This document shows positions 52,637 to 55,838 of a DNA stretch of 60,928 bases, piece after piece. Within the stretch, counting starts at the first letter, position 1, and the number at the start of each line of letters is the position of its first letter. This DNA comes from Candidatus Margulisiibacteriota bacterium. GTDB taxonomy: Bacteria > Margulisbacteria > Termititenacia > CAZZFK01. Both the position numbers and the translations under genes were made by a program. Where the stretch lies: assembly GCA_042562495.1 (NCBI GenBank), contig JBHPMC010000001.1, positions 107,983-168,910 on the forward strand, written 5' to 3'. The notes under the pieces are model-generated. The model ran no database searches, was not told where the DNA came from, and was given only the letters and a program-made list of their open reading frames with translations.

Positions 52637-53809
52637 ATGGCCGAGATTCAATATGGATTAACTGAAGAACAGATAGAGATCAGAAATATGGTCCGGGAAT
52701 TCGCTGAGGAAAGAGTAAGGCCAGTCCGGGCTGAGCTAGATGAAAAAGAAGAATTTCCAACGGAAATACTTAAAGAATTAGGGAAGATGGACCTGATGGG
52801 TCTCTATATTCCTGAGGAATATGGCGGTTTTGGCGGTCACTCAATAGATTATTGTTTGGCTATCGAAGAATTGAGTCGAGCCTGTATCGGAGTTTCGGTA
52901 TCCTATGCAGCCAATGCCCTGGGAAGCTATGCGATCTTATTTGCCGGCACGGAAGAGCAGAAGAAAAAATATATGACACCTTTGGCAAGTGGTGAGAAAT
53001 TAGCTGCTTTTGGGCTTACTGAGGCTAATGCTGGCAGTGACGCTGGGGGGATCCAGACGACAGCAGTATTAAAAGGAGATAAATATATCCTCAATGGCAC
53101 CAAGCAATGGATCACCAACGGTGGCGAGGCCGATATTTACACGATCGTTGCTATGACCGACAAGAAAAAAGGTTCGCGCGGAGCATCGGCTATTATTGTA
53201 GAAAAAGGCATGAAAGGTTTTAGCTTTGGGAAAAAAGAAGATAAATTAGGTATCCGGGCTTCAGCAACCAGAGAATTAGTATTTGAAGATTGTGAAGTGC
53301 CTAAAGAAAATTTGTTGGGTAAAGAAGGCCAAGGATTTATTTTAGCAATGAAGACCCTGGATCAATCTCGCCCTGGTATTGGTGCACAAGGAGTTGGTTT
53401 AGCACAGGGGGCTTTGGACGAAGCCGTTACTTATGCTCGCCAGAGAGTTCAATTCGGCAAACCAATCATGGCGCAGCAAGCCGTACAACATATATTGGCC
53501 AATATGGCTACCAAGACAGAAGCTTCCAGAGCTTTGGTGTATGCGGCCTGTCGCACCATAGATGCAAAAGAAAAAAATGTTTCCAAGATATCGGCGATGT
53601 CAAAGCTTTTCGCAACAGATACAGCAATGGAAGTGGCCATTGATGCAGTGCAGATCCTAGGCGGATATGGCTATATGAGAGAATATCCGGTCGAGAAAAT
53701 GATGCGTGATGCCAAGATCTTGCAGATCTATGAAGGTACCAATCAGATCCAGCGTAATGTTATTGGCGCAGCGCTGATGAAAGAATATGCAGGCAAAACG
53801 AAAAAGTAA
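52637..53809 (+). CDS. acyl-CoA dehydrogenase (Bcd/CarC-like)
   Basis: AFGLTEANAGSDA, GTKQWITNG, KLGIRASAT, QILGGYGY, IYEGTNQIQR (catalytic Glu). Confidence 0.95.
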   Translation: MAEIQYGLTEEQIEIRNMVREFAEERVRPVRAELDEKEEFPTEILKELGKMDLMGLYIPEEYGGFGGHSIDYCLAIEELSRACIGVSVSYAANALGSYAILFAGTEEQKKKYMTPLASGEKLAAFGLTEANAGSDAGGIQTTAVLKGDKYILNGTKQWITNGGEADIYTIVAMTDKKKGSRGASAIIVEKGMKGFSFGKKEDKLGIRASATRELVFEDCEVPKENLLGKEGQGFILAMKTLDQSRPGIGAQGVGLAQGALDEAVTYARQRVQFGKPIMAQQAVQHILANMATKTEASRALVYAACRTIDAKEKNVSKISAMSKLFATDTAMEVAIDAVQILGGYGYMREYPVEKMMRDAKILQIYEGTNQIQRNVIGAALMKEYAGKTKK

Positions 53810-53821
53810 GGAGTCAGTTCA

Positions 53822-54607
53822 GTGCATGTCGTTGTTTGTATAAAGCAAGTTCCAGATACTAACGAGGTAAAGATAAATCCCGAGACAAATACACTTATTC
53901 GGGAAGGCGTGGCCAGCATTATCAATCCTTTTGATGAAAATGCTATTGAAGCTGCTTTGGTATTAAAAGATAAAAAGGGTGCAAAAGTAACAGTGGTCAG
54001 CATGGGTCCTCCTCAAGTGGAAACAGCACTTAAGGAATCTTTGGCCCGTGGCGTTGATGATGTGGTTTTGTTGAGCGATAGGGCTTTTGCCGGAGCGGAT
54101 ACTTTAGCTACATCGTATACATTGACCGAAGGTATTAAGACCTTGGAAAAAGCCGATCTGATCCTTTTTGGTAAACAAGCGATCGATGGAGATACCGCCC
54201 AAGTAGGTCCTGGAGTCGCCGAATTAATGGACCTGCCCTTGATAACATATGTCCGCAAGCTGGAAGTTGAAGGCGAAAAAGTAAAAGTAGAAAGAGTTTT
54301 TGAAGATGGCTATGAAAAGATGGAAGCGCCAACACCGTGTGTTCTTACTATTTTAAAAGAAATGAATACACCTCGTATGGCTTCCTTAAAAGGAAAAATG
54401 AAGGCTAAAAAAGCTCAGATAAAAGTTTTAAATGCAGAAGCGATAAAGGCAGATCCCGAGCAGATAGGTTTAAAAGGATCGCCGACTCAAGTAGTTAAGA
54501 TCTTTACTCCGCCTAAAAAGACAAGCGGTCTGAAGATCGATGGTACAGCACCTTTGGATGCTGCTAAAACAGTAGTTGCGAAACTTAAAGAACAGAAAAT
54601 AGTTTAG
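53822..54607 (+). CDS. etfB: electron transfer flavoprotein beta subunit (bifurcating-type)
   Basis: VCIKQVPDT, FAGADTLAT, GKQAIDGDTAQVGP, GSPTQV. Confidence 0.95.
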   Translation: MHVVVCIKQVPDTNEVKINPETNTLIREGVASIINPFDENAIEAALVLKDKKGAKVTVVSMGPPQVETALKESLARGVDDVVLLSDRAFAGADTLATSYTLTEGIKTLEKADLILFGKQAIDGDTAQVGPGVAELMDLPLITYVRKLEVEGEKVKVERVFEDGYEKMEAPTPCVLTILKEMNTPRMASLKGKMKAKKAQIKVLNAEAIKADPEQIGLKGSPTQVVKIFTPPKKTSGLKIDGTAPLDAAKTVVAKLKEQKIV

Positions 54608-54620
54608 GGAGTATAAAGGA

Positions 54621-55838
54621 ATGGACTTAGAGATATTTCAAGATAAATGTACCGGTTGCGGATTATGTATCCCGGCCTGTCCCTTTGGAGCTTTAACCTT
54701 AGAACTTAGGGACCAATTAAAGCTTCCTGAAAGCAAATTCAAGAAGATAGCCGTGGTCAATGAGGCCTGTACGCTTTGCGGAGCTTGTGTGCCCGTTTGT
54801 AAGTTCGATGCGATGAAATTAGAAAAGGAAGAAAAAAAAGCAGCAGTAAACCTAAAAGATTATAAAGGTATCTGGGTATTTGCCGAGCAAAGAGAGGGAG
54901 AGATACAGGATGTGGTTTTTGAGCTTTTATCAAAGGGCAGGGAATTGGCCGATAAATTAAAAGAAGAGCTTTGTGCCGTTTTGCTGGGTGATAAGATCAA
55001 AGATAAAGCTAAAATTTTGTTCGCCTATGGTGCTGATAAGGTATATCTGGTTGAAGATCCTGGTCTTGCAGAATACAACACAGATCCTTATACAGATGTT
55101 TTATCCGATCTGATCAATAAACATAAGCCAGAGATAGTTCTAACAGGAGCTACCAGTATCGGGCGTGCTCTTATTCCAAGAGTAGCCGTTCGAGTAAAGA
55201 CAGGCTTGACCGCGGATTGTACCGGCTTGGATATTGATAATAAAGAAAAGATCATACTACAGACACGTCCGGCATTTGGTGGGAATATTATGGCCACTAT
55301 TGTTTGTCCAAACCATCGTCCGCAAATGTCTACTGTGCGACATAAGGTTTTCAAAAAAGTTATACCAGATGATTCACGAACGGGGCAGATCATTGAAGAA
55401 AAGGCGAGCATTAAACATTCCCGAGCAAAGATAATCGAAGTTTTACACGAAATGAAGAATCAAGTTAATTTAGCTGAAGCGGAGATCATTGTTTCCGGTG
55501 GTCGTGGTTTGGGCGGGCCGGAGAATTTTAAACTTATCGAAGAATTGGCCACTGAGCTGGGAGGCGCAGTAGGCGCTTCTCGTTCGGCAGTAGATGCCGG
55601 CTGGATCCCGGCCTACCACCAAGTTGGACAAACAGGGAAGACAGTTTGTCCAAAGTTATATATAGCTTGTGGGATCTCAGGTGCGATCCAACATTTAGCC
55701 GGAATGAGCTCTTCAGATACTATAGTAGCTATTAATAAAGATTCGGATGCTCCTATATTTAATGTTGCTGATTATGGAATAGTAGGGGATCTTTTTGAAG
55801 TTGTACCAGCGATGGTTAAGTCTTTAAAGGAAGGTTAA
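54621..55838 (+). CDS. etfA: electron transfer flavoprotein alpha subunit with N-terminal 2x[4Fe-4S] domain (CarE/LctC-like)
   Basis: [12 protein letters not shown] and [42 protein letters not shown]. Confidence 0.95.

Follow-up and report, generated by a model that had tools for sequence, protein, structure and literature searches.

What is an acyl-CoA dehydrogenase, accompanied by both subunits of an electron-transfer flavoprotein (Etf), doing in the middle of an operon for type II fatty acid synthesis (FAS-II), and which enzyme reduces enoyl-acyl carrier protein (enoyl-ACP) where such an operon has no fabI? These questions are raised by a stretch of 60,928 nucleotides (nt) from a Candidatus Margulisiibacteriota bacterium (assembly GCA_042562495.1, contig JBHPMC010000001.1, positions 107,983 to 168,910; the whole stretch is ‘the window’ below, with positions counted from its first letter). 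Here, the genes acd, etfB and etfA form a module within a single plus-strand operon that, from its open reading frames (ORFs) and their Pfam/NCBIfam matches, reads yceD-rpmF-plsX-fabH-acd-etfB-etfA-fabD-fabG-acpP-(FabX-like)-fabF. We consider it reasonably probable that Acd-EtfB-EtfA is the FAS-II enoyl-ACP reductase of this organism, probably an electron-bifurcating one, and that it stands in for FabI/FabK in many other anaerobes too; that it acts in FAS-II as a reductase of one kind or another seems to us somewhat safer to propose. The argument is built on features that can be observed—gene content, a bifurcating-type signature, position in the operon, conservation, and alternation with FabI/FabK—whilst analogy with characterised complexes suggests that the substrate would be ACP-bound, that the reaction would run in the direction of reduction and that ferredoxin would be reduced alongside it. 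The module consists of:

52637–53809, + strand: acd, a Bcd-like flavoprotein of the acyl-CoA dehydrogenase (ACAD) family, the proposed catalytic subunit; three ACAD Pfam domains
53822–54607, + strand: etfB, small Etf subunit, predicted bifurcating type; GTG start; best match CarD (6fah_B)
54621–55838, + strand: etfA, large Etf subunit with an N-terminal ferredoxin domain; Pfam ETF, ETF_alpha and Fer4

A gap of 80 nt separates fabH from acd, the ATG of the latter being preceded by AAGGAGG, a strong ribosome-binding site; the remaining gaps are 12 nt (acd to etfB), 13 nt (etfB to etfA) and 1 nt (etfA stop to fabD ATG). A scan for promoters and terminators, in which the number of sites in the region did not exceed that in shuffles, returned no convincing terminator on the plus strand between yceD and fabG. 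An initial annotation of this DNA had described the module as lying between fabH and fabD on the same strand, with the 12–13-nt and 1-nt gaps just given, with no intervening terminator, and in an operon that contains neither fabI nor fabZ; all of this is confirmed by the ORFs and the sequence itself, and the two genes are absent from the window altogether. The assembly as a whole (1.30 Mb in 36 contigs, 67% complete) likewise gave no FabI match. As it is only 67% complete, absences from the window’s own genome mean little, and we use as its stand-in G001, a 100% complete genome of the same family whose Acd is 90% identical; here and below, G and L numbers are our handles for genomes and loci.

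A Bcd-like dehydrogenase paired with an Etf of predicted bifurcating type

All three ACAD domains of Acd (N-terminal, PF02771; middle, PF02770; C-terminal, PF00441) score above their cut-offs. Amongst solved structures the protein matches the butyryl-CoA dehydrogenases (Bcd) of C. difficile (5ol2_C, 442.8 bits) and A. fermentans (413.2 bits), and a profile of its orthologs gives 509 bits to Bcd versus 421 to MCAD. It falls below the cut-off of all 23 listed NCBIfam models, the named ACAD equivalogs compared including AcrC acryloyl-CoA reductase, cyclohexane-1-carbonyl-CoA dehydrogenase and glutaryl-CoA dehydrogenase; the top score is that of AcrC (466.9 bits against a cut-off of 640). Acd is the sole ACAD, and EtfAB the sole Etf pair, found in the window assembly. 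All three proteins belong to the ACAD and ETF families, and show no homology to FabI, FabL, FabV or FabK.

Across 39 orthologs drawn from several phyla, the mean column identity of Acd is 77%, and E366, the glutamate of the YEGT region that we take to be the catalytic residue, is invariant in every one of them; conservation at this level would suit a housekeeping enzyme. Set against solved ACADs residue by residue, at the level of sequence, the ortholog profile revealed nothing that we could interpret as specific to ACP or to CoA.

In a tree of 91 Acd sequences (FastTree, local supports only) the branching mostly follows phyla, and the fab-linked state is scattered, at least 6–10 changes being needed to account for it. 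The Acds of the window and of G001 group with those of Verrucomicrobiota, Lentisphaerota and Kiritimatiellota at 100% local support, apart from their phylum-mates (window 52637–53809 compared with L032–L040 and L125–L131); a placement that suggests replacement of acd by a foreign ortholog within the same operon slot.

The Etf subunits appear to belong to the bifurcating (‘group 2’-type) class, with a CarE-like ferredoxin domain. EtfB scores 283.8 bits against CarD (6fah_B), 250.8 against the EtfB of C. difficile and 240.8 against that of A. fermentans; over its five best solved matches (CarD, C. difficile, A. fermentans, T. maritima and LctB) the range is 205–284 bits, versus 120 for human ETF-beta and 86 for the P. 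denitrificans ETF. EtfA behaves in the same way, with 304–451 bits to the corresponding five (CarDE, C. difficile, A. fermentans, T. maritima and Lct types) versus 183 for a non-bifurcating ETF: its match to CarE (6fah_A, 450.6 bits) extends over residues 2–402 and so takes in the ferredoxin domain, and the EtfA proteins of C. difficile and A. fermentans follow at 336.4 and 332.9 bits. All five belong to complexes that have been shown to bifurcate. At the N-terminus of EtfA, residues of about 10–60 hold two CxxCxxCxxxC motifs with eight cysteines in all, aligned with CarE residues 2–60, and Pfam Fer4 and Fer4_7 both fall on residues 4–64. The stretch around FAGADT in EtfB and the motif stretch of EtfA show few or no differences from the aligned parts of CarD/CarE and of the EtfB/EtfA of C. 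difficile; these are presumably the second (bifurcating) FAD/NADH site, formed by EtfB and domain I of EtfA. The motifs that it quoted, together with the two-cluster N-terminal domain, are present in the translations and align as just described, and its assignment of the Etf to the bifurcating type is supported by bit scores and motif alignments alike.

The module occupies the same place in several phyla

Amongst 40 relatives from the home phylum, 22 have a close EtfA, and the identical 22 carry one close Acd each, 64–90% identical to that of the window. In 19 of these, etfA is followed directly by fabD-fabG, and the best EtfA locus is found inside the fab cluster in 21, G030 being the only genome in which the module lies outside it. 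Two genomes have fabD further downstream of etfA in the same cluster, at 1.1 kb (G031) and 4.3 kb (G019); in the latter (L131, G019:C4), the intervening sequence of about 4.3 kb is an addition to an operon that is otherwise standard.

Beyond the home phylum, we scanned for Acd using one genome per species and took the best 80 loci as the result. A fab or pls gene lies within 4.5 kb of acd in 46 of these, 36 with etfBA beside acd and 10 without; a further 13 have etfBA and no fab gene, and 21 have neither, 11 of the latter having less than 3 kb of flanking sequence on one side. The fab-linked loci span Nitrospirota, Thermodesulfobacteriota, Margulisiibacteriota, Saganbacteria and others. The full order plsX-fabH-acd-etfB-etfA-fabD-fabG-acpP-fabF is seen in records titled Nitrospirota/Thermodesulfovibrionia and Margulisiibacteriota and in an actinobacterium metagenome-assembled genome (MAG); in records from Thermodesulfobacteriota, among them Desulfogranum marinum DSM 2058, the order is the same except that fabD is absent from that place. 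Variants without etfBA beside acd also occur, as plsX-acd-fabD-fabG-acpP-fabF in MAGs titled ‘delta proteobacterium’ (L070, L094, L097, L103, L111) and as fabH-acd-fabG in Syntrophaceae/Thermodesulfobacteriota records (L052, L059, L067). The idea of accBC as the neighbour of stand-alone acd genes in Nitrospirota proved to be wrong, the actual neighbours being genes for a phosphoribosyltransferase, PTPS, TldD and others.

Since the arrangement recurs across phyla, the synteny is far beyond chance. The initial annotation had looked to a survey of fabH-acd-etfBA-fabD neighbourhoods, and had regarded two things, amongst others, as telling against its proposal—an arrangement confined to this one genome, and a canonical reductase plus a butyrate pathway elsewhere. 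We encountered neither; the arrangement extends to 21 of the 22 Etf-bearing relatives and to other phyla.

The module and FabI alternate

In the home phylum, 22 of the 40 relatives have Acd/Etf and 15 have FabI (41–48% identical to E. coli FabI, E<=1e-52), with no genome having both; indeed, the 22 gave no FabI match at E<=1e-15. Counted by family code, the module is found in 13 families and FabI in 8, and no family is mixed. FabL-like proteins, with sub-cut-off scores of 249–281 bits, occur only in six genomes that bear FabI.

The same partition is seen in a second phylum, to which the complete chromosome G041 belongs and which is represented by 101 genomes that are each at least 90% complete. 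A close Acd (63–73% identity) is present in 53 of these, all of which have EtfA, the match taking in the ferredoxin domain in 51; FabI is present in 37 of the 101, and none has both FabI and Acd. FabK above its cut-off was seen in four of the 101, none of them Acd-positive, and FabL in none at E<=1e-65, a B. subtilis control being positive. G041 itself, which has the arrangement, gave no FabI-like match at E<=1e-10, no FabK-family match and no FabV match; a search for FabV (PF12241) in 41 + 5 genomes returned nothing, a weak negative as no control genome was positive either. The anticorrelation with fabI for which the initial annotation proposed a test is found as zero co-occurrence in 40 + 101 genomes from two phyla, with exceptions involving FabL or FabI-like proteins in other lineages (see below).

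Two relatives of the same class as the window, G006 (with FabI) and G005 (with a second, cysteine-less FabK-like gene, 278.9 bits), possess operons of the order rpmF-plsX-fabH-fabD-fabG-acpP-fabX-fabF: the window operon minus the three module genes, such that fabH adjoins fabD. These operons are a natural deletion control for the module. G005 is also one of three home-phylum relatives with neither Acd/Etf nor FabI, the others being G008 and G013. The simplest account is a non-orthologous displacement, with Acd-EtfAB as the enzyme of the enoyl-ACP reduction step.

Other genes for fatty acids and acyl-CoA

ECH_1 (crotonase), 3HCDH_N and Thiolase_C were found in none of four near-complete relatives (G001, G016, G028 and G011; 95–100% complete, two of them single contigs, and G001 from the same family as the window), the control genomes being positive. 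G041 has one FadB–thiolase cluster, located about 0.8 Mb from its fab operon. No alternative job, or source of substrate, is in sight for the module.

That fabZ is missing from the operon is ordinary, as FabZ (by its FabA-domain match) is present in 39 of 41 genomes. At one locus that we scanned (G023, L113:667–1902) it is fused to LpxA, with a FabA domain, hexapeptide repeats and Acetyltransf_11 in a single ORF of 411 amino acids (aa); most other FabA-domain matches in the 41 genomes lie in open frames of about 410–480 aa and, going by frame length, the fusion may be common. The window assembly contains a weak FabA-like domain only (24.7 bits), in a 331-aa ORF beside proS (L001:919–1914, contig C23).

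The operon and its surroundings

The remaining features of the operon, and of the region directly upstream, are as follows:

48477–49589, + strand: MerR-type helix-turn-helix fused to a DegV (fatty-acid-binding, FakB-like) domain; directly upstream of the candidate operon promoter
49613–49642, + strand: promoter-like site TTGACA-18-TATAAT upstream of yceD, 12/12 consensus; candidate operon promoter by consensus match only
49734–50246, + strand: yceD (Pfam YceD), usual leader gene of the plsX-fab operon
50253–50495, + strand: rpmF/L32 (Pfam Ribosomal_L32p), usual leader gene of the plsX-fab operon
50549–51556, + strand: plsX, phosphate acyltransferase (TIGR00182, 390.6 bits, cut-off 243.4)
51543–52556, + strand: fabH, beta-ketoacyl-ACP synthase III (TIGR00747, 439.8 bits, cut-off 292.1)
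55840–56718, + strand: fabD, malonyl-CoA:ACP transacylase (TIGR00128, 362.8 bits, cut-off 260.9)
56736–57482, + strand: fabG, 3-oxoacyl-ACP reductase (TIGR01830, 337 bits, cut-off 297.75)
57573–57821, + strand: acpP, acyl carrier protein (TIGR00517, 112 bits, cut-off 70.45)
57846–58844, + strand: FabX-like flavoprotein of the NMO/FabK family (TIGR03151, 169.6 bits, cut-off 453.1)
58861–60111, + strand: fabF, beta-ketoacyl-ACP synthase II (TIGR03150, 619.6 bits, cut-off 493.75)

The yceD/rpmF leader order is also found in relatives and in other phyla. The MerR–DegV fusion is a candidate fatty-acid-sensing regulator of the operon; a homolog, 32% identical, lies upstream of the same operon in G020 (L123:1874–2983). 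Elsewhere in the window, 11055–14372 (+) is an ORF of 1105 aa without an NCBIfam match at E<=1e-20, and the remaining genes look to be housekeeping ones (uvrC, dxs, smc, folD, dapL, nadE, radA and a Clp ATPase).

The FabX-like product of the gene between acpP and fabF deserves separate comment. Its label in the initial annotation holds, in that H. pylori FabX (7e1q, 140.9 bits) is its best solved match, with four cysteines and the GGH histidine aligned; all 17 of the operonic copies that we examined (L117–L134) retain these cysteines and the GGH, and both of the two non-operonic FabK-like copies are without the cysteines. The gene is found in 19 of the 22 Acd/Etf relatives, always inside the operon; it occupies the same slot in G005 and 7 of the 15 FabI relatives, all of which lack Etf. 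Being present in FabI and Acd/Etf relatives alike, it is not what alternates with FabI. Eight relatives that have FabI or FabK (G002–G007, G009 and G010) carry the FabX-like gene without Etf, and it was not found in module-bearing G023 (97% complete), G030 (94%) and G015 (75%), nor in the complete chromosome G041; similarly, in the second phylum no FabK-family match at E<=1e-30 was obtained from 36 of the 53 genomes with a close Acd. The FabX-like protein is a neighbour of the module, not a required partner. As a separate observation, the lineages in which the gene accompanies either FabI or Acd/Etf include probable anaerobes.

Weighing the alternatives

Of the three roles that the initial annotation had envisaged, that of enoyl-ACP reductase is favoured by the synteny across phyla, the exclusion of FabI, the sister operons without the module, and the missing crotonase, hydroxyacyl-CoA dehydrogenase and thiolase. 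The supply of primers to FabH explains none of these four, and a partnership with the FabX-like enzyme is disfavoured by the eight relatives that have the latter without Etf, as well as by the module being found without it in G023, G030 and G041.

Saying this, a number of observations weigh against our reading. Acd is closest to butyryl-CoA (short-chain) dehydrogenases, while a FAS reductase must take substrates from C4 to about C16. In about a quarter of the best 80 loci acd sits among unrelated genes, and a Bacillota ortholog sits with genes for corrinoid methyltransferases. No candidate reductase was found in G013 (94% complete), in G008 (80%) or in 8 of the 101 genomes of the second phylum; these may hold another enoyl-ACP reductase, or assembly gaps. 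Further afield, the Desulfobulbaceae genome G043 combines a fab-linked module with a FabL above its cut-off (331.8 versus 328 bits), Desulfogranum G042 has a sub-cut-off FabI-like protein, and so do Lentisphaerae G146 and Kiritimatiellales G149 (203–214 bits), in both of which Acd is not fab-linked; within the home phylum, the module of G020 is accompanied by a second FabK-like gene (246.6 bits). The co-occurrence counts come from related, non-independent genomes, and a small number of deep divergences may underlie the FabI/Acd split, which may also track an aerobic versus anaerobic lifestyle. Finally, the FabX-like protein, with its gene in 19 of the 22 Acd/Etf relatives, could itself be a reductase.

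The alternative nearest to our own proposal has Acd-EtfAB reduce enoyl-ACP without bifurcation in vivo, drawing electrons from NADH, or from reduced ferredoxin by way of the Fe-S domain, with no net reduction of ferredoxin. All of the comparative evidence for a reductase applies to it equally, and the ferredoxin domain could be a point of entry rather than exit; moreover, in the passages of Carnevali et al. 2019 (PMC6349859) that concern them, bifurcation was judged unlikely for the Bcd/Etf of Margulisbacteria and Saganbacteria. We think it improbable nonetheless, given that the scores of both Etf subunits single out bifurcating complexes as their five best solved matches—EtfB at 205–284 bits as opposed to 120 for human ETF—and that the motifs of EtfA and EtfB align with those of the same complexes. 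To a comparable, low degree we credit the suggestion that the FabX-like FMN/[4Fe-4S] protein is the real reductase, working via ferredoxin, and that Acd-EtfAB has some other FAS-linked task, such as the dehydrogenation of acyl-ACP for unsaturated fatty acids or the supply of reduced ferredoxin to the FabX-like protein. Its presence in 19 of the 22 Acd/Etf relatives, invariably in the operon, and the retention of GGH and the four cysteines speak for this; against it are the occupation of the same slot in seven FabI relatives and G005, the genomes noted above in which the module does without it, and the passages of PMC8626469 in which H. pylori FabX is described as co-existing with FabI and as a dehydrogenase/isomerase.

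A little less probable again, in our estimation, is that we have here a Bcd-EtfAB of the ordinary catabolic or energy-conserving kind, with short enoyl-CoA as its substrate, its place amongst the fab genes reflecting co-regulation or historical accident and some other enzyme reducing enoyl-ACP. High similarity to bona fide Bcd is what such an enzyme would show; close orthologs do lie away from fab genes in Verrucomicrobiota, Lentisphaerota, a Bacillota MAG and many Nitrospirota, and genomes without a recognisable reductase exist (G013 and the 8 of 101). It is difficult to reconcile, however, with the lack of crotonase, hydroxyacyl-CoA dehydrogenase and thiolase in all four near-complete relatives, with an insertion point between fabH and fabD that is kept across phyla, with the absence of any co-occurrence with FabI in 141 genomes from two phyla, or with a sequence conservation that is unusually high for a dispensable catabolic gene. 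The least probable is that the module supplies the neighbouring FabH with short or branched acyl-CoA primers: whilst the two adjoin each other, with an 80-nt gap, and the nearest relatives of Acd are short-chain ACADs, FabH is present and unchanged in operons without the module, the plsX-acd-fabD variants (L070, L094, L097, L103, L111) have no adjacent fabH, no upstream source of enoyl-CoA is to be seen, and the exclusion of FabI is left unexplained.

Proposed mechanism and its implications

If Acd-EtfAB is a bifurcating enoyl-ACP reductase then, by analogy with Bcd-EtfAB and CarCDE, NADH would reduce the bifurcating FAD held by EtfB and domain I of EtfA. One electron would pass to the mobile FAD of EtfA and from there to the FAD of Acd, which after two such rounds could convert trans-2-enoyl-ACP into acyl-ACP; the second, low-potential electron would leave through the two [4Fe-4S] clusters in the N-terminal domain of EtfA, bound for ferredoxin or flavodoxin. 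The net reaction per cycle would be 2 NADH + oxidised ferredoxin + enoyl-ACP -> 2 NAD+ + reduced ferredoxin + acyl-ACP. That ferredoxin is reduced in each elongation cycle seems likely from the bifurcating type of the Etf and from its ferredoxin ‘exit’ domain. In its broadest form—bifurcating ACAD/EtfAB as the housekeeping reductase of strict anaerobes in several phyla (Thermodesulfovibrionia-type Nitrospirota, Thermodesulfobacteriota and Margulisiibacteriota-like lineages), with one reduced ferredoxin for every two-carbon elongation—we would give the proposal an even chance.

The potentials involved are about -10 mV for the enoyl/acyl thioester couple, -320 mV for NADH and below -400 mV for ferredoxin; were the proposal true, part of the large drop in free energy that is lost with FabI would be conserved, and this would happen seven or eight times for each fatty acid made. 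To our knowledge, it would be the first case of a biosynthetic core pathway, as opposed to a fermentation, coupled to the reduction of ferredoxin by bifurcation. It would also add a fifth, structurally unrelated class of enoyl-ACP reductase, with FabI or FabK in its place in other lineages; supply the enoyl-ACP reductase that is ‘missing’ from many anaerobic genomes; and mean that organisms using the module are without the target of FabI-directed inhibitors. Bcd/EtfAB genes in MAGs, which are routinely interpreted as evidence of butyrate metabolism or of bifurcation in catabolism (as in passages of PMC6349859, for example), would have to be read differently. There may also be consequences for the interpretation of hydrogen-isotope ratios in the lipids of anaerobes, in that the hydrogen would be added by a flavoprotein and not straight from NAD(P)H (for background, see parts of PMC4916218).

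Comparison with known systems

Our full-text searches of open-access papers turned up neither an enoyl-ACP reductase of the ACAD/Etf type nor this gene order. Genes from Margulisbacteria and Saganbacteria have been read as a Bcd/EtfAB complex for which bifurcation was doubted, in passages that do not touch on a fab context (Carnevali et al. 2019, PMC6349859).

Bcd-EtfAB itself (C. difficile, 5OL2; A. fermentans, 4KPU/4L1F) shares with the window module its three subunits and the conserved YEGT region. The two differ in context, thl-crt-hbd for the former and FAS-II for the latter; in the additional N-terminal ferredoxin domain of the window EtfA; in the lack of a crotonyl-CoA pathway in near-complete relatives of the window genome; and in the proposed substrate, which for the window module would be enoyl-ACP of all chain lengths. 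CarCDE, the caffeyl-CoA reductase–Etf complex of Acetobacterium woodii (6FAH), provides the best match for both Etf subunits, the two-cluster ferredoxin domain included, whereas the match of CarC to Acd (343.6 bits) falls short of that of Bcd and the window has no car-type context.

The FabX-like neighbour shares with H. pylori FabX (7E1Q) the NMO fold, the aligned GGH histidine of the FMN site and, where FabK has its NAD(P)H-binding part, four aligned cysteines, which in the latter are the cluster residues C300, C304, C308 and C320 (in passages of PMC8626469). The spacing of the cysteines differs, being C-x3-C-x3-C-x4-C in the window and x3, x3, x11 in H. pylori, as do the likely circumstances: the window host is probably an anaerobe and the sole known acceptor of H. 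pylori FabX is oxygen.

The ACADs that act on carrier proteins—prolyl-ACP dehydrogenase (4IRN), RedW/PigA and MbtN—have the same fold as Acd and take ACP thioesters as substrates, from which it follows that the ACAD fold can act on carrier-protein thioesters. Unlike the proposed reductase, they oxidise their substrates, in secondary metabolism, and they are far more distant from Acd than Bcd is (4irn_A, 197.4 bits; RedW model, 256; PigA, 241.6; MbtN, 89.5); we know of no carrier-protein ACAD that is coupled to a bifurcating Etf.

With the established enoyl-ACP reductases—FabI, FabL and FabV of the SDR superfamily, and the NMO flavoprotein FabK—the module would have in common its reaction and its position in the pathway, and its distribution is complementary to that of FabI/FabK. 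Its fold, ACAD plus Etf in three subunits, is unrelated to theirs; and where the known reductases transfer a hydride directly from one NAD(P)H, the electrons of the proposed enzyme would travel through three FADs from two NADH, leaving reduced ferredoxin as a side-product.

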